Shown: positions 3,031 to 32,147 of the stretch, in pieces
Layout: each line of letters starts with the position of its first letter
Numbering within the stretch: position 1 is the stretch's first letter
Source of the DNA: Jimgerdemannia flammicorona
Taxonomy: Eukaryota
Reading direction: 5' to 3'
DNA: 32,383 nucleotides
NCBI GenBank assembly: GCA_003990765.1
Contig: RBNJ01000351.1
Location: 1-32,383 of the forward strand
Notes under the pieces: generated by a model
The model's database searches: none
What the model saw: the letters and a program-made list of their open reading frames with translations, nothing else
What the model was told of the DNA's origin: nothing
Made by a program: the position numbers and the translations under genes

Positions 3031-3104
<74 letters not shown>
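2187..3104 (+). mobile_element. 5'-truncated L1-type LINE (3' ~0.85 kb plus poly(A) 3034-3104)
   Basis: gatgtggagatgagacaggctactgctgggcagt matches ~30507 onward in the full LINE. It ends in agtccaagtaactat(A)71, like the other two copies. Confidence 0.85.

Positions 3105-3110
<6 letters not shown>

Positions 3111-5070: not shown

Positions 5071-5134
<64 letters not shown>
3105..5134 (+). mobile_element. 5'-truncated, internally deleted L1-type LINE (RT relic, 3' end, poly(A) 5074-5134)
   Basis: FLDQEKVYD, RVSQRDLLSLILYALLLEPL, AFAD, SGVKLN*YKCE and QYLSI parallel 29430-29950. It ends in agtctaagtaactat(A)61 and is interrupted by a MITE. Confidence 0.9.
3986..4316. mobile_element. hAT-type MITE, family 1 (331 bp, long inverted repeats)
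   Basis: Termini tagagattccagatagctgg / ccagccatctgggatctcta are inverted. The 8-bp TSD is gccagaac (3978-3985) / gccaggac (4317-4324). The matching empty site gccaggat is present in the LINE near 30595. Confidence 0.88.
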
Positions 5135-5136
<2 letters not shown>

Positions 5137-10187: not shown

Positions 10188-10645
10188 TGTGATAGTACAG
10201 CTAAATATGGAAGAAGGAAATAGGGAATAGACACTTGATCACACCCAGTCCCAAAGTAGTATAGCCATATAGTTAGCAGTCGCCAATTCCGACATTGTCT
10301 AAATTTCTAGACATTATTCAAATCGAACACCCTGATTTAGTATAGTATTTAGACATTGTCCAAATATTTTGACAAAGTCCAAATGACTCATTTATTACTT
10401 AGCCACCCTCTCATAGCTAGCAAACTTGTATAAATAACCCAGTATCTTTGAGTGAATAAACCTCAGATCGAAATAGTTCAAAGCAAAGAGATAGCAAAGG
10501 AACTAGTAAGCCTATGGGCAGATACACTTCGAACTCACCCACCCTTCCCTACAACTTCAAGAGACTCTGCGAGAGTCAGAACAGTCAAGTTTTCAAGATA
10601 CAGAAATCTGATGTACTTTCAAGAGTAAGCGTCTGCTACATTACA
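10188..10645 (+). repeat. E1 5' LTR
   Basis: Termini are tgtga...ttaca. It is colinear with 16427-16884, with tataaata at 10429 and aataaa at 10455. Confidence 0.97.
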
Positions 10646-10648
10646 ACT

Positions 10649-10665
10649 TGGTGCCCATTGACTGG
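10649..10665 (+). promoter_or_regulatory. E1 primer-binding site (non-Met tRNA ending ...GGGCACCA)
   Basis: tggtgcccattgactgg starts after a 3-nt act spacer following the LTR end. Confidence 0.8.
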
Positions 10666-10759
10666 TGATTTAAGATGAATCCCTCACTTTCAAGCTGAAT
10701 AACAAACAACTGCCACTACCTGAACAACCATACAAATCGAGCTCCAATACCCAGACAAG

Positions 10760-13700
10760 ATGGATATGAGACTGCCAGTATTCCACGAATATACCTCAGA
10801 TGAATCAATCATCACCTTCATTGATGATTTCGAGCAGTATGCTGCTGTAAGAACTCTGACAGCAGCACAGCAAGTAGCTCTCATGCCCTTCAGCCTATGA
10901 GGCCCTGCCAGAGCAGCATTCACAGCTGTAACCCATGCAGGAAATGATGCTGATGCTATACTGACAGCACAGAAGACCTGGCTCCGAAATATATATTACA
11001 CAGATGAGATCAAGCAAGCCCTGAAGAATTAGCTCAACACAACATGCCAAGGAATGAGCGAGGATCCAAACACATTCTATACCAGAATTCAATATCAGAT
11101 AATCCTTGCAGATTATGCTGCTGCTATCCGAGATCAAGTAGCCAAAGCAACCTTCATGAAAGGAGTCCATCCAGAAATAGCCATGGCCATCCGCTCATCA
11201 CCAGTAATTCTGGATCTGCCATAGAAGGTCACCTATGCTCAGCAATACTGGATAGCCAGATACCCACAAGACCATATAATGGAGAGAGTTACAGGAGTCA
11301 GAATCGAGGCACCCAAGACAACTAGTGTAATCCCCACCACAATGATCAATCGAAACACATCTCAGCCAAAAGCTACAGAGCAGCAAAAGAACAGTGACCC
11401 TATGGAGGAACTTACCAAAAGGTTTGCTGAGATGACTGCCCACCTGGGAGATATGGTAAAGGAAATCTGAGGAAGAGATTGCCGCCTTGTTCAGAAGTTT
11501 GCCGCCACCTCAGACAAAAAGAAAGGTACCTGCTACAGCTGTGGAGAAGAAGGCCACTACTCCTATGAATGTATGAGTGAAACCAAATGCAAGGCTCAAC
11601 CAAGCAATGCCACACAAAACAAGGAGCAGGCCAATACAATCACCTTTGAAGAAATTGGAGAATCCAATGAAGAGGAATGGGAGGCCTATCCTGCTCAGAC
11701 TACCAAGAAGGATGCTCGCAAAGAACCCTACAAGAGACCACCAAGAAGACCCAAGAAGAACCCAGTGGAAAAGTGGATGGAAACTGTCACAGAAAGTCAA
11801 GCCAAAGAGATGGACCAAGATATTGAGCTGGAGCAAGCAGTTCAAGATATCATCCGAGGAACCACTCCAGCCAGTGAAGGAGAAAAAGAAAAGAAGCTTT
11901 GCAAGATCAAGACCTTCAAGTATGATATCTTCAAGGATCTCAGTCAACAAAAGGTCAATGCAACCTTTGGTCAGCTCACAGAAATCCCAACATTCAGACA
12001 GCAAATGAGGTTTGGACTTGCCGAAACAACCAAGAAACAAGGATGGAAGATAACTGAGACCAATAATGTTCAAGAGGACTCAGGAGAAGAAAGTGAGAAC
12101 AATCGCAAAACCTCTGCTTATACAACATACCAAATCGAAGATAGAACCTTTGAAGCTATCATTGATATGGGAGCAGGAGGATGTCTCCTCAGTAAGAAGG
12201 CAGCAGACCGCCTAGGTTGGGATGTGGAAGAAGCAACTAAGTTAGTATTCGTCACAGCTGATGGCACAAGAGCCACACCTCTGGGAAAGATCTGAGATGT
12301 TCCCATCAAGATTGGAGGAGCAACAATCCCAGTAGACATAATCGTAACCAATGCCACCAACTATGACATCCTCATCAGCAATCAATGGCTTCACAAAGCC
12401 AAGGCGGTAATCAATCTCAATGCTCAGAAGATGCAGATCACCTACCGGGGACAGAAGATACAAATTTCCATCAATACCAACAAAGGAGTCCTGCCTGATA
12501 TGGAGGAAGAAGAGAGTAAGCAAGAGGAAGCTTATATGGTAACTACTCCAAAGAAGAAGAAAGTTGGATGGATGAGTGAAGAAGAATGGTGCAAGAAGAT
12601 TGCAGAAGGTTATGCCCTACAAGGAGTCTGTCCTCATGGAATCAAGATGTACTGTATGGAGCATGTCAATGATTGCTACCAGTGCACCATCGGAACCAAG
12701 AAGATCTATCAGGAAAGAAGGCAGAAAGCTCTCGAAAAACAGATCAGGGAAGAAGAGAAGGAGGAAGACGACAAACCACCAGCCCTCCTGGAGGACAGTG
12801 ATGATAAAGAAGAAATCAAGGTCAAGATTTGAAAGATCCACCCTGATGCAGTCTTGCCAGAATACAAGTCAGAAAACGCAGTCAGAATGAACATCACTAC
12901 AGTAGAAGAAACTGTACTTGAACCCCAGACAACCACCCTACTTGCAACTGGACTAGAGATGACCATCCCAAAGGATCATGTCGGGATTCTCAAGACAAGA
13001 AGCAGCCTGGCTAGAAGCAAAATCACAATCGAAGGAGGAGTCATTGATTTAGACTATACTGGAGAAATTCTACTCATTGCTAGAAATCACAATTCTACAA
13101 TTCCATTCCCAGTCAAGAAGAAGGACTGATTGGCACAGATGTTGATCTTTCCAATCATACAACCAAGGATCATAGAAGTCAAGAATCTGGAGGAAATGAA
13201 AAGAGGAAAGAAAGGATTTGGATCCACAGGAAGAGGAGTATTCGCCAGCACCAAGATCACCAAACTCAAGCATAAGAAGGAGGAAAACATGAGCAAGCAC
13301 AGTTATACCATTGGAGACAAATTCCCACTCAAGGAGAAACTCAAGAAAATACTCCATGAATTCGAGGATGTCCTTGCCACGGATTTCAAGGATATCAAGA
13401 GAAAGACCCCACACTACTATCATGAGGTAGATACCAGAGACACCGAATCAATTTATCAGAAGGCAAGATCTGTCCCACCAGTCTACTAAGAATGGCTCAG
13501 AGAAGAAATCAAGCAGATGGAAGAAGCTGGAATCATCAAAGAAGCCAGCAGCCCCTGGTCTTTACCAGTTGTACTAGCCCCGAAAAAAGGAAGCAAACCT
13601 GGAGAATTTGCCTCAAGGCTCTGTGTTGACTACAGAAAGCTCAATGCAGTTATCAAGAAGGATTACCAACCACTGCCACTCATCAGTGACATCCTTATAA

Positions 13701-14752
13701 CACTGGGAGACGAAGTACAGTACTATAGTACCTTGGACTTATACTCAGGATTCCACCAAATTGGACTCACAGAAATGGCAAGTGAAAAGTCAGCCTTCAT
13801 CACCCCAGACAGAACCTACATCTACCTATGAATGCCATTTGGAATGTGCATTGCACCAGCAAGCTTTCAGCGAATGATGAACAAAATCTTCCGCTATGAT
13901 ATGGGAAGATGGATGATGGTCTATGTTGATGATGTAATCATCTACAGTAAGACACCTGAGGAACATCTGCAGCACATACAGCAGATAATAGAGAGACTAA
14001 GACAACATGGCCTTTATATCAAACCCAAGAAGTACAAGTTTGCAGAAATCAAGATCTCCTATCTTGGCCATATTATCAATTGAGATGGAACACATACAGA
14101 CCCCCTCAAAATACAAGCGGTAGCAGCGTACCCAAGGCCCACTACTGTTACAGAAGCCCAAGCCTTCATGAGACTTGTCTCCTACTATTGCAGATTTATT
14201 AGAGGATTCTCTAACATCACAGGTCCAATCTACGAACTCAACAAGAAGAATACCAAGTTCTAGTGGACTGGCAGACAACAAAAAGTATTTGATGAACTCA
14301 AGATCAGACTAACTCAGGCACCCATCCTCAGACGACCCAATTGGACCCAAGAATTTATCCTTCAGACAGATGCAAGTGTGCAGGGACTAGGAGCAGTCCT
14401 AGCTCAAAAAGAAGACAAAAAAGAGTATGTTATTACATACCTTAGCCGTGGAACCCAAGGGGCTGAAAAAGAATATGAGTCCTACAAGTTGGAATGCCTT
14501 GCAGTCATCTGGGCTGTGGAAAAGTTCCACTACTATCTGGCTGGAAGACACTTCATCATCCAGACGGACCACTCAGCTCTCACCTGGCTACTGACAACTG
14601 GACAACCCAAGGGAATCTATGCCAGATAGATAATAAAGTTACAAGCCTATGATGTAACCATCATACACCGCCCTGAAAGAACAAATTCCAATGCAGATAC
14701 TCTCTCACAGACACCTCAAACTACCTCCAACCAACAAATCAATCATGAATAA
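10760..14752 (+). pseudogene. gag-pol: E1 Gag-PR-dUTPase-RT-RNase H polyprotein (single frame, multiple premature stops)
   Basis: Motifs: MDMRLPVFHEY...FIDDFEQYA, zinc knuckle CYSCGEEGHYSYEC (11531-11572), protease AIIDMGA, RLCVDYRKLN, LDLYSGFHQI, MPFGM, YVDD, LQTDAS, TDHSAL, NADTLS. All track ORFs from 11279 to 14378 that carry these motifs share one frame, which ends at TAA 14750-14752. Confidence 0.95.
12815..13231 (+). pseudogene. dut: Trimeric dUTPase domain of E1 (between PR and RT)
   Basis: IHPDAVLPEY...TGLEMTIP...TRSSLA...GGVIDLDYTGEI...LAQMLI...RGKKGFGSTG gives motifs II-V clearly, with motif I decayed (AVRMN). Confidence 0.95.
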
Positions 14753-15938
14753 GGAGCTCTACTATGGAATTATCACATACCTGGGACAGTGAAAGATGCC
14801 CCAACATCTGGAAGAATGGACACAAATGATTATCAATAGGACATGGAAACAATTCGAAACTGATGGAGAAACACTGAAGAAAGGAAAACTACTGGTTATA
14901 CCAGAACACAAGAAGGAGCAAGCGATGAAATCAGTACATGAACTTGGCTATCTAGGAGGAATAAATACATATGACAAGGCAAGAAGAACAATATGGTGGC
15001 CAGAGATGGAGGAAGATATCAGACAATTTGTCAAGACATACAACAAATGCCAGAAACAAAAATAAGACCAATGGAATCAAGCCCCAGGATCAGCACACAT
15101 AGAACCAGTACCATTTGCCCATATAGCAATAGATGTAATCGGCCCTCTACCCTTGACTCTGACTGGTAACTGATATATCATTATCATCATAGACCTTTTT
15201 ACGAAGTGGATAGAAGCAGGACCTCTCAAGGAAGCCAATGCACAGTCAATTGCCGATTTCTTCTACAAGGAAATCATCTGCCGGTTCAAGACCCCAATAC
15301 AAGTAACTACAGATAGAGGAACAGAATTTGTGAACCAGCTCTTTGAGGTTCTCTATAAGAAGTACAAGATCCAGCACATTCAGACCACAGCCTATCACCT
15401 CCAAGAAAATGAACAAGTAGAAAGGACCAACAAAACTCTCAAGAATATTATCACCAAGATCTGTGATAACTACGAGAACTGGGATTACTATCTGCCAATA
15501 GTATTATCTGCTCTCCGGGATATTCAATCACAAAGCACCCACTTTACCCCTTGAGAAATGCTGTTTGGAGAAGAATGTTCTCAAGGAACCCTATCATCCA
15601 ATGGAGATACTGTATAGAAACATGTGGATATGGAAATACGGAGATTACACCAAATCAGAAAGAAGGCTGAGGATTACATAACCAAGGTGCAGACACTATA
15701 ATAGAGGAATGCAGAAAAGACCTACAAGCTCTTGGAGATTATCAAGATAGGAGACAAGGTCCTAGTATATTGGAATATGGTAGAAGCTTCATAATCATGA
15801 AAACTGGAGCCCAAGTGGGAAGAACCTTATCTTGTGCAAGATATAAAAGAGACCACCTTTTGGCTATAAAAACCCTCAGGCACAATAATCTCCACTACCA
15901 TTCACCGAAACTGACTCAAGAAATATTATGGCCAGTAA
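14745..15938 (+). pseudogene. E1 integrase in its own reading frame
   Basis: Motifs: MNKELYYGIITYL, VHELGYLG...WWPEM...YNKCQ (decayed HHCC), IDVIGPLP, TTDRGTEF, QVERTN, KLEPKWEEPYLV (GPY), IHRN*LKKYYGQ*. Confidence 0.93.
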
Positions 15939-16404
15939 CAAAAGTACTACAATGGCACTCAAGATTACTAATGCTGCCCAAAGAGCCATCGAAAGACAAT
16001 GGCACACCACCAAGCCTCCGACCATAGAGGCATACTATGAGAATATTCAGAGTATTGTGCAGACTCATCTCTCTCAGATCTCACACTTTAGAGCCTATCA
16101 ATATCAGGCAGAATTCCAAGAGTACTTCAAGCTTAGACAGGTGCTCAATCAGGATCCAGCAAAGACCAAAGAGGACTAGATTGCCAAGTGTCAACTCTCC
16201 CACTCACAAATCACTATCGCCAAAAGGATCCACAAGTTATTCCAAGAAGATGAACCAGTGATAGACTACCTGAGAGGAGTAATCCCCACCAACTTCGAGA
16301 AAGTGAGGAGACATCATTGGGAAATAGTCATATAGCAAATTACACAATATAAGACCATATAGATGGTTGAAGCCTGGGAGTTTGAATAGATGCCTCAGAG
16401 ATGA
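15928..16404 (+). pseudogene. E1 extra ORF3 of unknown function (3' end uncertain)
   Basis: The ATG overlaps the integrase stop. There are 83 open codons, and the frame then continues (IAKRIHKLFQEDEPVIDYLRGVIPTNFEKVRRHHWEIV) up to the PPT with only TAG stops. Confidence 0.7.
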
Positions 16405-16416
16405 GACCATCTATTC

Positions 16417-16425
16417 AGGAGGAAG
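16417..16425 (+). promoter_or_regulatory. E1 polypurine tract
   Basis: aggaggaag lies immediately before the 3' LTR. Confidence 0.8.
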
Positions 16426-16426
16426 T

Positions 16427-16884
16427 TGTGATAGTACAGCCAAATTTGGAAGAAGGAAATAGGGAATAGACACTTGATCGCACCCAGTCCCAAAGTAGTA
16501 TAGCTGTATAGTTAGCAGTCACCAATTCCAACATTGTCTAAATTTCTAGACATTATCCAAATCAAACACCCTGATTTAGTATAGCATTTAGACATTGTCC
16601 AAATATTTTGACAAAGTCCAAATAACTCATTTATTACTTAGCCACCCTCTCATAGCTAGTAAACTTGTATAAATAACCCAGTATCTTTGAGTGAATAAAC
16701 CTCAGATCGAAATAGTTCAAAGCAAAGGGATAGCAAAGGAACTAGTAAGCCTGCAGGCAGATACACTTCGAACTCATCCACCCTCCCCTACAACTTCAAG
16801 AGACTCTGTGAGAGTCAGAACAGTCAAGTTTTCAAGATACAGAAATCTGACGTACTTTCAAGAGTAAGCGTCTGCTACGTTATA
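16427..16884 (+). repeat. E1 3' LTR
   Basis: Termini are tgtga...ttata (terminal CA decayed to TA). It has about 22 substitutions and no indels versus the 5' LTR. Confidence 0.97.
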
Positions 16885-17554: not shown

Positions 17555-18904
17555 TTTTTTTATAATATACTAATTATAAGATATATATAGATAACTATCT
17601 GAGTAATACTCCTAATGAGTTAATTTAATCTAGATTGAATTTAGATTGATTCAGATTGAATCTCATTCAGATCAACTTAGATAAGATTTGAATCTCATCT
17701 AGATAGATTTGAATCAACTATTGTTTTGATTTCCAAATTAGACAATTAAATATTTATATTGATAACTTAATGAATAATCATCTAAATTTGATGATCTTAG
17801 TATCATTTAAAAGTCTTTAATAAGGCCTATCTAATGATATCAAGAATATTAAAATCAGATTATGCATTACTGAGTTATAAAGGAAATCATCTGAATTACC
17901 AATTTTGAAAATTATTTAATTTACTAATTTTGAAAATTTCATCAAATAGAACATTTTCCTTAATATCTCAGCAATATATAATCTGATTTTAATATTCTTG
18001 ATATCATTAGAAAGGTCTTATTAAGGGCTTTTAAATTACACTAAGATCATTAAATTTGGATGATTATTTATTGAGTTATTGATGTAAATATTTAATTGTC
18101 TAATTTAGAAATCAAAATAATGGTTAATTCAAATCCATCCAGATGGGATTTGATCTTATCCAAGTTGATCCAGATGAGATTTAAATTCCATCTGGATTGA
18201 TTTATTTGGAGCACTATGTCTGAGTCTCTTTTCTCTTAACTTTAACTCCTCTATCTCAGAATGGTTTACTATATCTATAAGAGTATAGTAGAAGAAGAGT
18301 AATAATAATAAGTTGTCTCTTTATTGATATCAGATTGGTGTCTTCTCTACTTTTTCATAGTTCTGATATCTCTGGCTATATATGGAGTATATTTATCTTA
18401 GTATAGTATCTTCTTTCTTTTGCCATCATCAACAAAATATCATCTTAGTATATTATAGGCTATATAGAGTATTAGCTGATCTTAAGTATTAAGTACTAGA
18501 ATAGATTATCTATAAGTTCTTAATATCTATAGTAGAGCCCTCTGAGCTTTAGTGAGCTTCCCAGTAAGTATAATGCTAGTATAAGTGACTGTTTTTGGTG
18601 AGGTTGAGATATAAGAGGAGATGGTTATTATAGATAAGAGAAAGAGTAATAATAGTGAATCAGTAGAATATCAGGCTAGAGACAGTTATTAGAACTAGAG
18701 TAAATATTATATTGATGAGATCTTCTAATTAATACAGAGTAGTTAGATAGTAAGTATCACTCTTAGCTACTTTTGATAATATATAGAGTTGGGTCCTAGT
18801 CATTAGAGATAGTTGAGAGGACCTAAGACTACTCTGATCAGATATCTTAGTTATACTTAACTAGAACTAAGAGCTGATGTAATACTACAATTGAGATCTA
18901 CAAA
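17555..18904 (+). mobile_element. SINE-like retroposon, copy 2 (strongly AT-decayed; interrupted by two MITEs; remainder probably ~31817-32100)
   Basis: agttgtctctttattgatatcagattggtgtcttctctactttttc aligns to 7478 onward and 32285 onward. Alignment continues on both sides of the MITE at 17604-18216. Confidence 0.8.
17604..18216. mobile_element. hAT-type foldback MITE, family 2, copy 1 (613 bp)
   Basis: Termini are taatactcc / ggagcacta, with inverted arms of roughly 270 bp. The 8-bp TSD is tatctgag (17596-17603) / tgtctgag (18217-18224). Confidence 0.9.
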
Positions 18905-19258
18905 TAGTACTCTAAATAAGTTAATTTAATCTAGATTAAATTCAGATTAGATTCAGATTAAATCTCATCTGGATTAACTTAGAAGATATTTGAATTCCAT
19001 CTAGATCAATTATTGTTTTGATTTCCAAATTAGATAATTAAATATTTACATCAATAACTTAATGAATAATTATCTAATTTTGATGATCTTAGTATCATTT
19101 GAAAGCTCTTAATAAGGCCTTTCTAATGACATGTCTCTCTCTAGTACTATTCAGGTTACACAACCTTTGGAAAGCACTTACAACATCGTTTTTGGAGAAA
19201 AGAAACTAATAACATGGCAACTGACAGGCAATCTGAGGTGTGTACTGGGCAGGGTGGC

Positions 19259-20761
19259 TATAAGAGAGTTACTTTTTAGGATAATCATTATGTAGTTCTG
19301 GAAGGGTTTTCTGGAAGTTCTGGATATTCTGAAAGACCATTTTCTTATGGTCAAGATCAATTTCATATAGAGTATATTCTCTATGCTTATTGATTTCAAG
19401 ATCAGATTAATGTCTCAACCAAAGTCCTTTTTCGGACTAGTTCTGGATGTTCAGGATTTTCCATATTTCAGAGAGTTCAAGAAACTAAGACCAGCTTAGT
19501 TGAGTTGGCATATTACTGCAGATAATACCTAATTAGGAAATTTCGTAATGGGGTTAAGAGTGGGACCTAATGGGGAGCAGATTTACTTAAGAGTAGTTTA
19601 TAGGTTATTAAATAGATTTATTCGCTATTCATGATATTACTATATTAGGAGTAGTTGTGTGAAGGGATATTGTGAGAAAGTGTTCAGGAATGTTCTTGTA
19701 TGTTTGAGTCTATTCAAGTCTGAGATTCTGAGGTCTGGGAGAGGGGGTATTTATACTAGTGAGGGGCTATCTGAACTATACTGTATATGGATGTAGCACT
19801 AAGTGCCTTACTGAGTTGGAATGTAGTCATATAGTACAAGTATGATCTGATATATCAAGAGATTGTCTGACTGCTAAGTCAGTTCACAGTTATATCATAC
19901 AAGGCTAATCTAACTATACTATGACTGCTAAACTATTTATAGATTTAGATGCTGTCTGGTTAGTCTTTGATGACATCACTATTGATGACATCATCACTAG
20001 TGAAGTCTGAGCAGTTTTCTGACTTCTGATATCATCAGTTTCAAAGGTATTGTTACTTCTATCTCTTGTAAAATTATGACTATCCTTAGTGGTGGTGGTT
20101 GTATAAGGATAACAGGTCTTGGTTCTCTTTTTTTTTTGGTCTGCTAGTGCATTTGTGAGGACTGGCTATTCTCATCTAGGGCAAGGGCTCCCAATGTCAC
20201 AGCTGGGAGTTCAAACCTCTTGGAAATGATATTTTCTATAATCTAAGGCAATTTCTAATAGTAATATCTGTCATATAGATGGCTTGAGATTGGTTTCGAT
20301 GATGTTAGCTTTCTTGAGTTCAGATGAAGCATCCATCACTCTCTAATAGAGGTGATACAGATAGAGCGAATGGAGTTGTTTAAATGTATTTTACTTCTAC
20401 TAAGTAATGAGGTCTTGTATAGTTGCAGTGTATCCTGATCTTGAGTTGATAAGTATAGTTCGTGAACCTTTTGATGGATGAGATAGGGCTCTTCTTATCT
20501 CGATTTGAGTTTGGTACTTTTGGTTTCCTTTTGTAATAGTACAGTATACCAAACTAGTTATAGCAATTCAGAGTTAGTCTTATAGTTATAGTACTTCTTC
20601 TAGTATTCTTGTATCTTGGCAGTGGGTTCTTGTGCTTGCTGACATATTTTGTGTAACCAGATGATCTCTTCAGTAACTTGTTTTATAGTCTTGCATGTGG
20701 TTTCCAAATTAGTTTTGAGGATACTATGCAATTTTGGTGGCTTAGAGGTTGTATGCTTACA
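19259..20761 (-). repeat. E2 3' LTR (1503 bp)
   Basis: Termini are tataag (decayed tgtaag)...cttaca. A TATA box (tataaata on minus) is at 19748-19755 and the PPT aaaaaggggagag is at 20763-20775. Confidence 0.95.
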
Positions 20762-20819
20762 ACTCTCCCCTTTTTAGCTTTTGACATCCTCATCGGGGCC
20801 TTCTAATTTGTTCTGATAT

Positions 20820-22235
20820 TGTTGTACCATTTGGATGGTTCTTGTGGCTGTATTTGTTGAGGATTTGTTCAACTTTGTATTCTTCTTGATCATTAATAAT
20901 GACAGGTACAGGTGGTTCTGTGGTTCGGTTCAGAAATGTGTCTCAGACCTTCTGGAGTAGTGGTCTGACATGGCTGTTAACTTTAGAAAAGTCTTCTTCA
21001 GAGTTCTCAGATTCTCCTTTAGATGGGCAGATGGAGATGGTGAAGAGAGGGCATTTCTTAGCCAATTTCTTGAGTTGTAGTTTGTTGATATAGGTGATCT
21101 TTGGTCTAGGGTCACTAGAGTTGAGTGAGTCCTTTTCACCTTGCAGTTTGAAGTTATGGCATCCTTTCTTGATGGTTAGAGAATGGTTTACCCAATCGAT
21201 CATAGAGTTCTCTTATTTTAATCATAGAGTCCCAAGGATGATTTCATTATCAGAGAGTGGTATGATCTGGAGGGTAACATGTACTTGGTAGTCACCAATT
21301 TGGAAAGGTAGATTGTGAACTTTCTTGCTAATAATATGGGAGATTCCATCAGCTGTGGTGACTGCTTAGGTTTGTTGTATCAGAGAGGTGAAGACCTTGA
21401 GTCTGTTGGCTGTTTCTTCATTGATGAAGTTACCTGAGACACCACTGTCTATCATAATCTTGACAGGTGCTCGATTGACAAAAGCTTTAAGTGTAAGCAG
21501 TTTGTCTGATCCAATAGTGGTGATTTCAGTTGTAGGAGCTTTCCTTCTATTGGTTCTTCTTTGAGCCAGTTTGTTGACACAAGAGAAGCAATCATCAATC
21601 ATTCAGGAAGAGTACATTTCAATACCATAGAGGCATTGGCCACTTGGTACATATCTGTCTTCAATTTTCTTGTAGAATTATTCTTCTTTGTTCATAGTAG
21701 GTTGGGCTGGGGCCTTGTTTGATGAGCCAAATCCTTTGGATTCTTGGATAGTGGGCAGTAGTTTAGGGACTTCCTTGACTGTTAGAGTTGACTCAATTTT
21801 TTTGAATAGAATCTGGGCAATGCAGAAACCAATGGAGATCTTGAAGGATGTCCAACTATGATTTCAGATGAGGATAATAATTTTGTCTGTGTAATTCTCA
21901 TCAATGACTCCTCCTTCTACTGAGAGTTCTTTCAATGCTAGGCTGCTGCAACAGCATATTCTTCCAATATGTCCTTTAGGAATTTGGATACTGATTCCTG
22001 TATAGACTTGCTTGATTTCTTGATTGGAAACTGTAGCTTCTTCAGCTGCATACAGATTATATCCAGCTGCTTTTTGACTTCCTTTGGTTGGGGCCTTAGC
22101 AGTTTGCCTTAACTTGACAAAGTCTAGTATTCTGGTAGTCAGGTTATTAAGGTGGTGCAGAGTAGTAACAGTTACTAAGGTTTTCAGTTGGGGCAGGTAC
22201 TGGCCATATGTCCTGTCTTTTGGCAATAGAAGCAT
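20820..22235 (-). pseudogene. E2 truncated pol: dUTPase - Cys/His module - aspartic protease - chromodomain stub
   Basis: dUTPase (~21720-22127): KAAGYNLY...TGISIQIP...SSLA...GGVIDENYTDKI...IAQIL...KGFGSS. Protease: IMIDSGVSGNFI...IILG. Then EEYKVEQILNK. It lies in the -1 frame relative to gag. Confidence 0.92.
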
Positions 22236-23179
22236 GCTCTGCTTCTTTGAAGTTCATTCCTTTTGCCTTCAGTGAGTTTCTTGAAGGTACTCAGCTGGGT
22301 GGGTTTGTGATTTCTGGGTGTCCATGAGGTGGATGTGGAGGGAGCTTGGGATGCTACATACTTGGGTTCTTCTTTCTTGGTCCAAGTCTTTTCCTTATTA
22401 TTGAATTGTCTTTGAGGCAGAATTGGTCCAGCTATTAGGATTTGCTTAACTATGGTCTTGATTCTTGCCAGGCACCATTGTTGGTGATTGCAACCAATTG
22501 GGCAGCCTTGTTCTCAGATTTTTCTAGTAAGCCATTTAGGTAGTACATCGAATAGATGGTCTGCTCTTGTACTATTTCATGCTTCATCATTGGCAATATA
22601 TCCTAGGCCAATAGTGTTCAGGAGTGACTTGAGTTTTGTACAGAAGGTTTCAAATTCTTCTTTGCCATATACATCAAATTTGAGGTTGTAGAGTTTTACT
22701 GGAGATTCAGTGATCATCATTTCACTGTAGTATTGAGCAATCATGAGTTGTTTGAGTCCAGGGACTGCAGGATGGACTCCATATCCTAGGGCATTGTTTG
22801 CTGCATTCTGAGCAACTACTGCAGGTCAGGTATCCCATATGAGGAGTTTTTTAGGAAGAGTTTACCACCATTCTTCAGCAGGTCCTTGGAAGAATATAAT
22901 AACTCGGCAGACATAGGCTGTGGTAGTAGCAAAGAGTTGTTCCAGAGTATGGTCTTGATTGTTTGTCAGAATGCGGTCAGCAACTCACTCATTTGTCCAT
23001 TGATTGGCTTCAAAGTTGGTATCAACTATACTAATGAAGCTTTGGACTTCTTGTACAGTACCATTGAAGGTAGGTAGGCTCAGATTTTTGGTAGATTAGG
23101 TCTGTTCAGCTAAGGCAGTAATGATTGCTGCCATTATGGCTACCTGGGCTGTGAGGTCTAGAATCTGTTGGTTTGCCAT
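22175..23179 (-). pseudogene. gag: E2 Gag
   Basis: MANQQILDL...LPTFNGT...FQGPAEEWW...CFYCQKTGHMASTC (zinc knuckle ~22193-22234), all in one frame with scattered stops. Confidence 0.9.
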
Positions 23180-23220
23180 GTTGTTTACTGGAGGCAGTTG
23201 GACTGCTGGTAGTGGTGTTA

Positions 23221-24130
23221 CTAGACTACTTGAGGTACTAGTGCAGAGTGTGAGGGTGTTCTTTGAGTCTGTGTAAGTTGCTGCAGTAGTAGTTGTAGGT
23301 CTGGAGTAAGGGCTCAATAGATAGCTATTTGTTGCTGTGTGGGTGTATTCTGGCCTGATGGAGGTGTGTCTCCTTCAGTGGTATATCTGGGATCAAATTC
23401 ACTGAGATACTCCTCCTTCTCTTCGGTTTGGTCCCCATGTAATTGGGTTTGCTCAGCATCAAAGTAGACAGAATTAGTTGTATATCTGATTTCAGATGGA
23501 CTTAATTCAAAGTCAAGTTCAGGTTTGGTATTGATTTCAGATTCAGGTAGGGCTGTAGCAGGGCCTGCTTCTAGTTCAGAGTCAGGTAGTTGATGAAGGA
23601 TTTTTCTTGCTTCTTCTCTAAGAATATGGCAGGCCTTGCTGTTCTGGAATCGGTAGTATAGTGTAGTCTTGGTCCTGGTATGGTGAAAGTCGGTAGAGTT
23701 GAGCCACTTGGCTACAGAGACTTGGGCTTCATGAGGGACTAAGGCTAGAAAGACTGCTGCTGGTTATTCTAGGTTGCTCAGATTTATAGAGCTAACAAAA
23801 CTCTTGTTGAGAAGAGTAAATAAGGCTTCTATAAGACCTTCTTTGTCTTGACTTGTTGAGTGTAGTGCAAGGAGTTCGGTAAATAGAGTTTTGCCTATTT
23901 GCTGATTTAACTGGAGTATTTCTTTCTTCAAATGAAGTTTGTCCCACTTATTGTAAGTGTGGAGGTCAAATTGTCCTTATACATCAGGTTCAATTCTCTC
24001 CAGATTGTCAGATGGTTCAGGATAAATTCCAGTTCAGAGGTTGGGCTTTATACCAACTTATAGGAATTCACAGAGGGGTTTGTAGCTGGATGAGGAAGTA
24101 TCTTGAAGCAGAATTGGATTGTAAACCACT
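23221..24130 (-). pseudogene. E2 extra upstream ORF0 (~300 codons, unknown function)
   Basis: One frame has only about 5 internal stops (TAA/TGA) and a ~150-codon open stretch. It is absent from the ORF track for lack of a start codon. Confidence 0.7.
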
Positions 24131-24137
24131 GCTACCA
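24126..24137 (-). promoter_or_regulatory. E2 primer-binding site, probably initiator tRNA-Met
   Basis: tggtagcagtgg lies on the minus strand after a 3-nt act spacer. tggtagc is the usual iMet-type PBS start. Confidence 0.8.
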
Positions 24138-24140
24138 AGT

Positions 24141-25620
24141 TGTAAGAGGGTTGCTTTTTAGAGTAACTGTTACATAGTTCTGGATATTCTAGAAGACTGT
24201 TTTCTTATGGTCAAGATCAATTTTATATGAAGTATATCCTCTATGCTTATTGATTTCAAGATCAGGTTAACATCTCAACCAAAGTTCTTTTTCAGACTAG
24301 TTCTGGATGTTCAGGATTTTCCATATTTCAGAGAGTTTAAGAAACTAAGACCAGCTTAGTTGAGTTGGCATATCACTGCAGACAATACTCAATTAGGAAA
24401 TTTTGTAACAGGGTTAGGAGTGAGATCTAACAGGGAGCAGATTTACTTAAGAGTAGTTTGTGGGTTATTAAATAGATTTATTCGCTATTCATGATATTAC
24501 TATACTAGAAGTAGTTGTGTGAAGGGATATTGTGGGGAAGTGTTCAGAAATGTTCTTGTGTGTTCGAGTCTGTTCAAGTCTGAGATTCTGAGATCTAGGA
24601 GAGGGGGTATTTATACTAGTGAGGGGCTATCTGGACTATGTTGTATATAGATATAGCACTAAGTACCTTATTGAGTTAGAATATAGTCACATAGTACAAG
24701 TATGATCTGATATATCAAGAGATTGTCTGACTGCTGAGTTAGTTCACAGTCATGTCATATAAGGCTAATCTAACTATACTATAACTGCTAAGCTATTTAT
24801 AGATTTAGGTGCTGTCTGGTTAGTCTTTAATGACATCACTATTGATGACATCATTGCTGGTAAAGTCTGAGCAGTTTTCTGACTTCTAATATCATCAGTT
24901 TTAAAGGTGTTATTATTTCTATCTCTTGCAAAATTATAACTGTCCTTGGTAGTGGTGGTTGTATAAGAATAACAGGTCTTGGTTCTCTTTTTTTTTTGGT
25001 CTGCTGGTGCATTTACGAGGACTGACCATTCTCGTCTAGGGCAAGGGCTCCCAATGTCATAGCTGGGGGTTCGAACCTCTCAGAAATGATATTTTCTATA
25101 ATCCAAGGCAATTTCTAGTAGTAATATCTGTCATGTAGATAGCTTGAGATTAGTTTCAACAATGTCGGCTTTCTTGAGTTCAGATGAAGTATCTGTTACT
25201 CTCCAACAGAGGTGACACAGATAGAGCGAATGAAGTTATTCAAATGTGTTTTACTTCTGCTAAGTAATGAGGTCTTGTATAGTTACAGTGTATCCTGATC
25301 TTGAGTTGATAAGTGTAGTTCATGAACCTTTTGATGGGTGAGATAGGTTTCTTCTTATCTCAATTTGATTTTGGTACTTTTAGTTTCCTTTTGTAATAGT
25401 ACAGTATACCGAACTAATTATAGCAGTTCAGAGTCAGTTTTATGGTTGTAGTACTTCTTCTAGTATTCTTATATCTTGGCAGTGGGTTCTTGTGCTTGCT
25501 GGTATATTTTGTGTAATCAGATGATCTCTTCAGTAACTTGTTTTGTAGTCTTGCATTGGTTTCCAAATTAGTTTTGAGGATACCATGTGATTTTAGTGGC
25601 TTGAAGGTTATGTGCTTACA
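24141..25620 (-). repeat. E2 5' LTR (1480 bp)
   Basis: Termini are tgtaag...cttaca. It is colinear with 19259-20761 apart from a 22-bp and a 1-bp indel and many transitions. Confidence 0.95.
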
Positions 25621-27636: not shown

Positions 27637-30600
27637 ATGAATAGTACAACTAACATTTTTTCTTTAAACATGAATAGGTTACAGGGCACTGCTAGATATA
27701 GGAACATTTTTACTTGGATGAAAAGATTGGAGACTGATCTCTTCCTCTTGCAGAATGTCAGGTGTGAGGATAATTCTGATAGGATAAAATAGATAAAGGA
27801 ATGGGGAGGTGTGGTGATCTGGAAGGGTAAGGTCAGGATTCTGGTTCAAAAAGATAAGGGACATGAGAAGCTGGGGGGAGAGACTGGTCTGGGGCAAGTA
27901 GATTTGCACAGGCTGAGAGCCAGTTACTGTTGGCTCCTATTACTGTTCTGCTATATAGGGTGAGCATGTAGATTGGGTGAAAGGTCTCCAGGAGAGTGGG
28001 ATTCTTGCAGAGACTGAGGTGGATATGCTTGGAGGAGATTTCAATATGGTTTGGGATATACAAATGGATAGAACAGATGGAGGATGGGGTGCTGAGAGCA
28101 GGAGTGGAGGGCTGGTGGTATGAGAGGAAGTAGAAAGACTAAGTGTACTAGTAGATACTGGTAGAGAGTACTGGGGGGAAAGAAGGGTTTATATGCATTG
28201 GGCAGGGGGCCTGGGGACAAGAATTGACTAGATTCTGACAGCCAGTTGCTGGGGCCTAGATATTTGGAAGTTGCTGAAGGTAGAATAGTGTCCATGGTTG
28301 GATCACTGGGGGCTTTTGAGACAGGTGTGCTTTGGGGGAAGTAGAGATGGGCCTGAACATTGGTGCCTACATTCCTCTTTGTTAGATGATAAACCCCAGT
28401 GAGATGAGTGGGCTAAAGACATTCAGCTAAGGGTGGAGAACTGGTGGCAAGAAGGTGTCTCAGTTGGGGTTTGGTGGATGAGGATGAAGGAGATGACCAA
28501 GATTTACTAGGGTGAGGTTGGCAAGGAGACAGAGAAGCAGAGAAGGTGAAGAGTGTATTGGGCTTCTACTAGATTGGCAAGGCTCCTAGAGGAGTGAGTA
28601 AGGCTGATAATGTTGGAGAGAGAAGAAGATTGGAGATTAATGAGAGCAAAGATGGAGATTGGGGAACTACAACAGGTGCTGTGGGAAGAGAAAGAGGCAA
28701 GAGTACAAAGCTTGGTGGCACAGCTTCATTGACAGGATCTGAAGGAAGGGGAGAGACCTTCCAAGTTTCTTATGAGGGCCCTTAGAGCAAGAAGAGTACA
28801 GCAATAGTGGGAAGAGGTACTTGACTCAGATGGTGTACTAGTACATGGTATATAGGATATTCTTAGATCATTGAAGGAGTGATGGAGTAGATTGTGGAGT
28901 GAGGAGGAGGGTGGGATGGATGCTACTGCTATTGACTGAACATTGGAGGATTGGCACTCACCATAAGTAGAGAGACTTGGTGATCTGATGATGCCTGTAC
29001 AGGAGGATGTGATCTACTAGGTTCTTGCCATGACAACTCCAGGTACAGCACTTGGGGAGGATGGTCTGCCCTGGGACTTCTGAAAGCAGATGGTTGAAGT
29101 CCTGGGTGTGATGGGAGAGATGACAGCATTGTGTAACTTATCTTACAAACAGGAAGATGGGTGGGGGAGCAGGATCTCGGGCTAGTGATACTACTTTATA
29201 AGAACAAAGGAAGGCATGAGGATTGGAAGAACTGGCAACTGATAATGTTGTTAGATATGGACAGAAAGTTGGTGACTAAGGTGGTGGTTGCAAGACTACA
29301 GAAGGTAGTCCAGCAAGTCATGGGTGTTGAACAGAGGGGATTTGTGAGTGGTTGGCTCATTAGGGATGGCACAGCCTAGATACATAGAGTTATTAAAGGG
29401 GCAAGAGCCTGTAGACTGGATGGATATCTAGTCTTCTTAGACCAGGAGAAGGCTTATGACTGGGTACAACAAGTCTGGCTGGTAAAGGTATTGGATAGAA
29501 CTGGAGTTCTATACCAATTCCAGTCAGCAATAATCAGCCTACTGGAAGGGAGTAGAGCTGCACTCATGTATAATGGATATAGAAGGGTAGCATTCCCCTT
29601 GGGTAGAGGGGTGCCCCAGGGGGACCCACTGTCTCCCATTTTGTATACTCTCTCCCTGGAACCCCTAATGGACAGAATTAGATAGAAGATAGTGGGGCTC
29701 TCTGTCTTTGATATTGGGTGAAAAGTTGGGGCCTTTGCAGATGATATAGTGGTTGGTTTGGGATCAATTGCTGATGTCAAGAAGCTCAAAAAGACAGTGG
29801 AGTGGTATGAGGAGAACTCTGGGGCTAAGCTGAATTGGCACAAGTGTGAAATGATAGTGCTAGGCAATGATCTAGTGGGAGGAAAGGTTATAGGAACAAT
29901 TGTCCCCACTGGTGAGACAGTACAGTACTTGGGCATCTATTTGTCAGTCTATGGGTCAGTTCTGCCCAGGCTTTGGTGGAAGCAGAGGATTGAAATCTGG
30001 GAGGAGGTCCTGCAGGATTGCAGAGGAAGGCACTTTTCTCTAGTAGGGTGGGTCTTGATTTTGAATGTCTATTGGCTGCCGAAGTTATGGTATCTGGCTT
30101 ATCATCTGGACTTCTCAGCCTGGGTGGTGAAGAGATTGATGAAGTTGGCAAAGAGATAGATTTGGGCTGGCAGACGGAGTCAGATTGGTTGGAAGACCTT
30201 ATTCTTACTGGTGGCAAGAGGTAGTTTTGGGCTGGTTGACTTTTCAAAATGGCTATACTGCTTAAGAGCATGGTGGCTAAAGAGAGCAGTGGAGTTGAGA
30301 GGAGATGGTTGGATTTCCTTACTACAAAATATCTAGGAGAGACAGTTATTGCTAAGAGGCTTGACTGGCAATCTCCTCTCATTGGTTGGACTTCAAAGCA
30401 CTGAACAACTATGATATAAAGGATTTTGGTGTGGGATAGCAGAGGGGGTGTACTGTATTGGAATTTATTGGCAGGGGAATGAAGAGGAGATGGCTTGGGA
30501 CTCAATGATGTGGAGATGGGATCATATACTGCTGGGCAGTACCTCTTTAATTGAGTTTGACATTGGTGATGGAATGGAATGCCAAAGGAGACCAGGCCAG

Positions 30601-31339: not shown

Positions 31340-31417
<78 letters not shown>

Positions 31418-32147
31418 CCTTTCTAATGATATTAAGAATATTAAAATCAGATTACACATTGTTAAGCTATTAAGGAAAATGTTTCTTTGAAAAAATTTTC
31501 AAAATTGGTAAGTCAAATAATTTCTAAAATTGGTGAGTTAGATGTTTTCCTTAATAACTCAGCAATATATAATTTAATTTCAATATACTTGATATTATTA
31601 GAAAGGCCTTATTAAGGGCTTTTAAATAATATTAAGATTATCAAAATTTGATAATTATTTATTAAGTTATTGATATAAATATTTTATTATCTAATTTGAA
31701 AATCAAAATAATAGTTGATTTGAATCAATTCAGATAGAATTCAAATTCCATTTAAGTTAATCTGGATGAGATTCAAATCTAATCTAGATTAACTTATTCA
31801 GAGTACTATTTATAAACTTAAGTAATAAGGTATTAGAAATCTCCTCTTATCTTATATAAGTTCTCTACTTATCTTATTAGAGAGAACTAGATCCTATTTA
31901 CTATTCTGTACTTTGAAGGAAGTTTTTTTTTACCTATTGCTCTACTTGAGATAGTAGGAGCTATTCTATTTGACTTGGATATAGTCTTATATATATTATA
32001 GATTCAATATATATCTTTAATTATTGATATATGATTACTTTCTCTCTAATAATAGAGAGAGTATAATATATAGAATAAGATATAGATTACTATAAGCCCT
32101 ACTATATTTGATATGGTTAAGTTGCTAGATAATAACTAATCTACGCT

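Follow-up and report, generated by a model that had tools for sequence, protein, structure and literature searches.

The window analysed here, a 32,383-nt stretch of Jimgerdemannia flammicorona DNA, contains a decayed Ty3/Gypsy-type LTR element (E1; 10188-16884) in which a Gag-PR-dUTPase-RT-RNase H frame is followed by an integrase gene (IN; 397 aa) and then by a third open reading frame, ORF3 (153 aa). All features of E1 described below lie on the plus strand. The 5′ LTR occupies 10188-10645 (TG...CA, with a TATA-like box at 10429), and the 3′ LTR (16427-16884) ends in TA in the E1 copy. The pair is identical at 436 of 459 aligned bases, with transitions accounting for 21 of the 23 differences. 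Three nucleotides past the 5′ LTR lies a sequence that resembles a primer-binding site (PBS; 10649-10666, beginning TGG), a reading drawn from established LTR-element anatomy, and a polypurine tract (PPT) occupies 16417-16425. The flanks, CTAG and CTAA, agree at 3/4 positions and probably represent a 4-bp target-site duplication. Flanks preceding the 5′ LTR in sister copies (L205-L223; 18 besides that of E1) are AT-rich and mostly end in ATAT, CTAT, TTAT or ATAG, which suggests a target preference.

ORF1 (10760-14752) encodes Gag with a CCHC knuckle, protease, dUTPase, RT and RNase H in a single frame that terminates at a TAA at 14750. Pfam matches to zf-CCHC, Asp_protease_2, dUTPase (9e-23), RVT_1 (7e-32) and RT_RNaseH (6e-33) support this order, and the ORF1 ATG is kept in 19/20 copies. 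The initial annotation described the 4-kb Gag-to-RNase H frame as lacking a frameshift. This holds over its 1330 codons (10760-14749), but the E1 copy carries 12 in-frame stops there. With 11 more in IN and 3 in ORF3 the copy is dead, and it is depleted of CpG (observed/expected 0.23).

ORF2 (14745-15938) is the stand-alone integrase, composed of a zinc-binding domain, a DDE core and a GPY-type C-terminus (Integrase_H2C2, 6e-14; rve, 3e-11). In a profile search of the PDB its best solved relative is the Ty3 IN (Gag-Pol; E 1.6e-59, profile positions 30-412). Assignment of E1 to the chromoviruses was rejected: the IN C-terminus gave no Pfam Chromo match at E 0.1, and in 26 aligned proteins IN ends a few residues past the GPY-type domain. 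By the structural tests of LTRs, PBS, PPT, the order PR-RT-RH-IN and a Gypsy-type integrase, E1 is a Ty3/Gypsy-type element. ORF3 (15928-16389) completes the coding region; it is modelled as all-helical and belongs to no known family.

Gene junctions in E1 and its sister copies

The first junction, ATGAATAA at 14745-14752 (ATGaaTAA), contains the IN ATG (14745) 5 nt before the pol-frame TAA (14750), with the IN frame at +1. The IN ATG had been annotated as overlapping the pol stop codon. The two ORFs do overlap, by 8 nt, but the codons share no bases, since the ATG starts 5 nt upstream. The same start-before-stop design had been proposed for the end of IN and is indeed found at 15928-15938, ATG(n5)TAA, where the ORF3 ATG (15928) lies 8 nt upstream of the IN TAA (15936), again at +1, and the two ORFs overlap by 11 nt.

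Sister copies were sought in the 231-Mb assembly, where 40 copies were scored out of 2523 candidates. The final family-A set comprises 61 distinct copies, E1 included, 33 of which came from IN-only protein searches. In this set the pol TAA is present in 61/61 copies, the IN ATG in 60/61, the IN TAA in 55/55, the ORF3 ATG in 54/55 and the ORF3 TAG (16387) in 47/47. All other in-frame stops are polymorphic, reaching at most 38% of copies in RH, IN and ORF3 and at most 8/12 copies in gag-pol, where 12460-12950 is without sister coverage. The RH-to-IN spacing is kept in 28 of the first 30 loci, and the two indels both fall inside IN, not at the junction. Because the junction starts and stops are fixed while other stops are polymorphic, the three-ORF layout is the state of the active family. 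The proposal of a real tricistronic design, as opposed to a random indel, is therefore borne out over 47-61 family copies. A predominance of sister copies with RH and IN in one continuous frame, the outcome named beforehand as refuting it, did not materialize, as no copy lacks the pol stop. A canonical Pol polyprotein, with IN in frame with RT-RH, was rejected on this universal stop together with the change of frame. Two further in-frame ATGs lie earlier, at -59 and -53 relative to the stop (52/58 and 49/58 copies). They were also rejected as IN starts, since they coincide with the NADAL codons of RNase H and are followed by an IN-frame peptide that shows no conservation.

The integrase frame across families A, B and C

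Protein searches of the same genome yielded two further families, B and C. Family B has ~70% nucleotide identity to A in IN and carries the same 8-mer, ATGaaTAA, in 15/15 distinct contigs covering the junction. In family C the junction is ATGA in 13/17 cases; the other 4 carry an earlier pol-frame stop, at which the reading of the pol frame ended.

Comparison of 20 A and 15 B copies allowed the frame of variation to be followed through the junction. Up to the ATG, variation concentrates at the codon position expected for pol; from the ATG on, at the one expected for IN, and the change falls exactly there. Amino-acid identity in the IN frame is 0.2 in the 10 codons before the ATG and 0.9 in the 10 after. 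Bases 0-13 of the junction are nearly invariant, whereas the 30 nt upstream diverge, and between A and B nothing indicated that the IN frame is selected before the ATG. IN is almost certainly a cistron of its own, with selection acting on it from its own AUG onward.

The frame offset between pol and IN is +1 in A and B, -1 in C and five metagenome loci, and 0 in three loci. Splits in all three frames argue against one shared frameshift or readthrough.

Split integrases in other elements

We screened 96 loci outside this genome and found RNase H followed by a separately starting IN in 9 of them; no split member was found among 16 loci in viral contigs. Measured as ATG minus stop, the separation is +5 in L047, +18 in L066, +33 in L051 (with two in-frame stops between RH and ATG), +66 in L053, +77 in L059, +161 in L052, +281 in L061 (with an in-frame ATG at +110) and +524 in L050; the junction of L083 is decayed. 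In 6/11 junctions the ATG falls between -5 and +33 nt relative to the pol stop, and in 5/11 the start is within ~20 nt of the stop, the E1 values being -5 and -8. A purine occupies position -3 of the IN ATG in 9/11 junctions.

In L050 the 524-nt spacer is tiled by two ORFs (868-1397): one of 83 aa starts 35 nt past the pol stop, and one of 85 aa overlaps the stop of the first and ends in ATGaaTGA on the IN start. An arrangement of this type arose in 0/3000 dinucleotide shuffles, under thresholds chosen after seeing the case. The spacers of L053 and L061 contain no such relay. L051 (178-2919) differs at its 5′ end, where Gag is preceded by ~400 residues of cysteine-rich and proline-rich repeats, and gag and pol are separate ORFs.

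In protein searches, among homologues of similar length, 27/55 are whole stand-alone integrases of 398-442 aa that cover at least 99% of IN, and no long fused relative exceeds 34% identity among the best 120 of 425. The 19 closest stand-alone relatives have 38-71% identity. Close homologues that bear a species name are limited to proteins of Rhizophagus irregularis (32-37%), which makes a fungus the likely host. Met1 of IN is an invariant column in the 26/26 aligned proteins chosen, which is weaker evidence than the DNA junctions because gene callers force an initial Met. Ty3/Gypsy integrase is normally cleaved from Pol. Position 37 of the IN profile aligns to residue 33 of the PFV integrase chain, so IN would start approximately where mature IN begins in PFV, and its start appears to be placed about where the protease would normally free IN from Pol. 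The split families are only 31-71% identical, and several have open frames (L051, L053, L061, L066). Elements of this kind risk being scored as broken or as lone 'transposases', and the homologue names include 'IS30 family transposase'.

Forty of the outside loci had enough RH and IN to enter trees. The resulting 44 rows (12 split, 20 fused, 8 IN-before-RT and 4 unclear) are unnamed loci only, with no named lineages or Ginger elements. Split rows cluster, requiring 5 and 4 changes versus 10.6 with shuffled labels (0/500). A, B and L047 group together in both the RT-RH and the IN trees (94/88 and 100/97). AU tests do not reject a single clade for the 12 split rows (p 0.68 for IN, 0.20 for RT-RH), and deep support is weak in the 44-row RT tree of unnamed loci.

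ORF3 and its relatives

ORF3 has nine homologues at 66-84% identity and one more at 27%. Judged by its fixed ends and these nine homologues, it is a real gene. Visual inspection had suggested a motif in the 3′ ORFs of both other families, B and C, and of four loci (L047, L053, L054 and L060), and this motif was evaluated with leave-one-out profiles on 9679 segments. Recovery was clear for family A (E 1.8e-8), B (2e-10), C (7e-14) and L054 (4e-5) and weak for L047 (0.02), L053 (0.03) and L060 (0.6). On these profiles, a helical core domain is common to ORF3 and the 3′ ORFs of related elements. In most of the split elements observed, an ORF with this domain comes after IN.

The predicted model of ORF3 is all-helical and polar (pLDDT 86.8), and no long hydrophobic stretch, such as the transmembrane segment of an env-type ORF3, was noticed by eye in the 153-aa sequence. 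Pfam placed the first member in no family and gave two stray single-member matches among 12. A PDB sequence search returned one weak match (E 0.025), Foldseek returned nothing at E 0.001 in the PDB or viral libraries, the best VIA match had Z 4.3, and no phage match was found; an Atlas search gave mostly unnamed clusters at 0.95. Non-significant fold rows, namely ParB/VirB cores (Z 3.1-3.3) and a DUF3102 protein (TM 0.40), hint at a helix-turn-helix as far as the whole-protein model goes.

The description of two matching overlaps applies to family A, to which the IN/ORF3 overlap is peculiar, and not beyond it. In four relatives ORF3 starts ~34-61 nt past the IN stop; families B and C carry the ORF3 domain ~500 nt downstream of IN, with other short ORFs between. 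The family-B copies L157 and L158 have, 3′ of IN, an ATG 7 nt past the IN stop, short ORFs, and then an ORF of >300 aa with the ORF3 domain; several stops in this region are fixed.

Expression of a separate integrase

LTR retrotransposons and retroviruses are held to make IN within Pol, which doses it and carries it into the particle. If IN is free-standing, dosing and packaging must be solved another way. Our best reading, which we consider reasonably likely, is that IN is reached by termination-reinitiation on the genomic RNA; among the three mechanisms originally offered (stop-restart translation, a +1 shift or subgenomic RNA), stop-restart is the best supported. The full-length RNA would be read as a relay. 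Ribosomes would finish Gag-PR-dUTPase-RT-RH, and a minority would stay on the RNA, reinitiate at the adjacent IN AUG, and do so again at ORF3. Reinitiation would keep IN at a much lower level than Gag, doing the job of the frameshift in other elements. With Gag and RT fused 1:1, it would be the sole step at which IN output is lowered. IN would also be independent of the protease and, being free of Gag-Pol, would have to enter the particle without a Gag-Pol tether. The split elements make three matters testable: reinitiation after a 1330-codon ORF in what is probably a fungus, IN packaging without that tether, and what the new accessory protein does.

Starts placed on stops in three geometries, together with the relay of small ORFs in L050, point to reinitiation, the L050 case being the most telling. 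Known signals for such coupling were also sought, and none was found, which counts against this reading. UGGGA, which is TURBS motif 1, is absent upstream of the stop in 11/11 junctions. No stable fold was found around either E1 junction (z +0.8, +2.2 and 0.0, with +2.2 for 14745-14860), the 30 nt upstream of the ATG show no conservation between A and B, and ATGs are not depleted in the long spacers (8 versus 7.8, 3 versus 4.6 and 2 versus 2.1 expected). SART1-type coupling was rejected, as both the UAAUG pentamer and the downstream structure (z +2.2, 14745-14860) are absent in E1.

The same junction geometries are proven reinitiation sites in caliciviruses, AUGucUGA in RHDV and AUGA in FCV (PMC2699510). 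CHV1 is described as reinitiating in a fungal cell at ~4%, under 5%, without a TURBS motif (PMC2699510). TURBS-type reinitiation tolerates roughly 30 nt (PMC10275272), a distance exceeded by the spacers of L053 (+66), L059 (+77), L052 (+161) and L061 (+281 or +110).

Tight packing of ORFs can also come from genome compaction with subgenomic RNAs, and the main rival gives IN (and ORF3) a dedicated subgenomic RNA, either spliced from the leader or transcribed from an internal promoter in RNase H. We consider this a serious but rather unlikely alternative. It would accommodate spacers that vary up to 281 nt without a relay, and the good Kozak contexts at the IN starts (ACCACCATGG in L066, and the purine at -3 in most junctions). 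Spliced messages are the typical templates for the ORF3s of LTR elements (PMC5408684), and foamy viruses express Pol apart from Gag (PMC8402755), both of which may serve as precedents by analogy. The signals themselves are scarce: a branch point plus acceptor within 80 nt is absent in 10/11 junctions, and a TATA box within 300 nt is absent in 8/11, including A, B and C. An acceptor-like CAG at 14706-14711 has its AG in only 16/59 copies, and the spacers of L051, L053, L059, L061 and L066 have no YAG in the last 60 nt or are too short. A subgenomic RNA would also leave the starts on stops in three geometries and the L050 relay unexplained.

Internal ribosome entry, through an RNA element before the IN AUG that acts independently of upstream translation, we hold to be very unlikely. 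Its best evidence is a hairpin 3-20 nt before the IN ATG in L048, L056, L058 and L065, in which 31/32 cells are paired and 4/8 pairs have changed on both sides in a compensatory manner, a count from four sequences that also served to derive the structure. The hairpins lie at approximately L048:38-63, L056:190-213, L058:23-46 and L065:506-527, with a CA-NYG-TG loop and a bulged A. In A and B, the 40 nt before the ATG are G-poor (0.05-0.10 versus 0.21) and unstructured. The hairpin was not seen in E1 or in families B and C (B was not folded), the ORF upstream of IN in L056 and L065 has no RNase H match, and A and B show no sequence conservation upstream of the ATG. L056 and L065 have this upstream ORF in common; it ends ~75 nt before IN.

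A programmed +1 frameshift or readthrough, yielding an ordinary RH-IN fusion cleaved by the protease, is highly improbable. A shift is physically possible in families A and B, where no IN-frame stop interrupts the last 87 nt and ~140 nt before the ATG, respectively, and the +1 shift between gag and pol of Ty3 (PMC5911963) might be invoked as precedent. The +1 shift that had been entertained as a mechanism is strongly disfavoured by the relatives, which use offsets of +1, -1 and 0, and by the two in-frame stops before the ATG in L051. The IN frame upstream of the ATG is without selection, families A, B and C have no +1 motif of the Ty1/Ty3 type, A also lacks a slippery heptamer, and the conserved Met would be unnecessary. 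Scarcely credible, and already largely refuted, is a split that arose by damage in a non-autonomous founder or an IN captured from a Ginger-like DNA transposase: every family-A copy examined across IN is decayed by stops or partial and the trees of the 12 split rows do not establish monophyly. Against it stand the occurrence of the split in families with as little as 31-71% identity, several of them with open frames, and the position of IN between the LTRs, where no flanking inverted repeat was reported. In addition, A, B and L047 group alike in the RT-RH and IN trees, and the AU tests allow one clade.

Comparison with known systems

By description, E1 resembles the fungal Ty3/Gypsy elements with dUTPase, such as PosPlaTy3-5 of Postia placenta, the Phanerochaete elements and Tmt1 of Tuber (PMC2864245), in its LTRs, PBS, PPT, PR-dUTPase-RT-RH-IN order, single Gag-Pol frame and Ty3-like IN. 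In those elements, as described, IN is part of Pol (in one Gag-Pol ORF or in gag plus pol), whereas E1 has an IN ORF of its own without a chromodomain, followed by ORF3. Surveys of fungal Gypsy elements likewise report one or two ORFs with IN inside pol (PMC2864245, PMC3248453). No description of an LTR element with a separate IN ORF was found in the literature searched, whose coverage leaves subscription journals and Repbase reports mostly outside.

Reinitiation would place E1 beside several better-known cases. Like caliciviruses, CHV1 and HvV190S, it and families B and C have a start a few nucleotides from a stop and out of frame, with AUGnnUAA and AUGA among the shared forms (PMC2699510, PMC10275272). 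Unlike those viruses as there described, two of them fungal, E1 has neither UGGGA nor upstream structure, its spacing is more variable, and its upstream ORF spans 1330 codons. In the non-LTR retrotransposons SART1 (UAAUG) and LINE-1 (63-nt spacer) the enzymatic ORF is reported to be reached by reinitiation (PMC5972666), and the LINE-1 spacing is comparable to the 35-77 nt spacers of the split elements. Both are non-LTR elements in which the split separates ORF1 from the whole of ORF2, and SART1 needs a downstream structure that is absent in E1.

With the TAV protein of CaMV, reinitiation spans distances from a few to 700 nt and needs no cis-signal (PMC5972666), and CaMV, like E1, is reverse-transcribing with tightly spaced or overlapping long ORFs. 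CaMV has no integrase or LTRs, and ORF3 of E1, at most a candidate transactivator, gave no Pfam, PDB or viral fold match. On a broader reading, which we regard as speculative and clearly improbable, a widespread unnamed LTR lineage would translate its genomic RNA as a polycistronic relay that runs from pol through optional small ORFs to IN and ORF3. It would need no fixed cis-signal, like the caulimoviruses, because it would encode its own reinitiation factor, for which the ORF3 domain is the candidate. Such a lineage would be the first among LTR elements to encode RT and IN in separate genes, and would offer a living model of how the two stood before, or after, they were fused.

Ginger1 and Ginger2 also encode a Gypsy-like integrase, of ~400 aa, with its own start (PMC2836005). 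They are described as having terminal inverted repeats and no RT (PMC2836005), whereas the IN of E1 lies between RNase H and the 3′ LTR. Identification of the E1 IN as a Ginger DNA transposon was rejected for the lack of terminal inverted repeats and the adjoining RT/RNase H.

Other repeats in the window

A second LTR element occupies 19261-24547 on the minus strand, with a Gag knuckle, a dUTPase before the protease and the start of an RT. From there it jumps to a chromodomain-like stretch and a 3′ region like that of family C, and it looks like an internally deleted chimera. A decayed integrase core with a chromodomain-like C-terminus, of chromovirus type, lies at ~1400-2300 on the minus strand beside a copy of this element's LTR. 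Three long poly(A) runs (~3035-3105, 5075-5135 and 31345-31415), each after AAGT[AG]ACTAT, are likely 3′ ends of a non-LTR element, and reverse-transcriptase-like text occurs near 29454-30382. Dispersed inverted-repeat elements of ~500 bp at 17633-18150, 19005-19132 and 31411-31799 are MITE-like and 80-90% alike.
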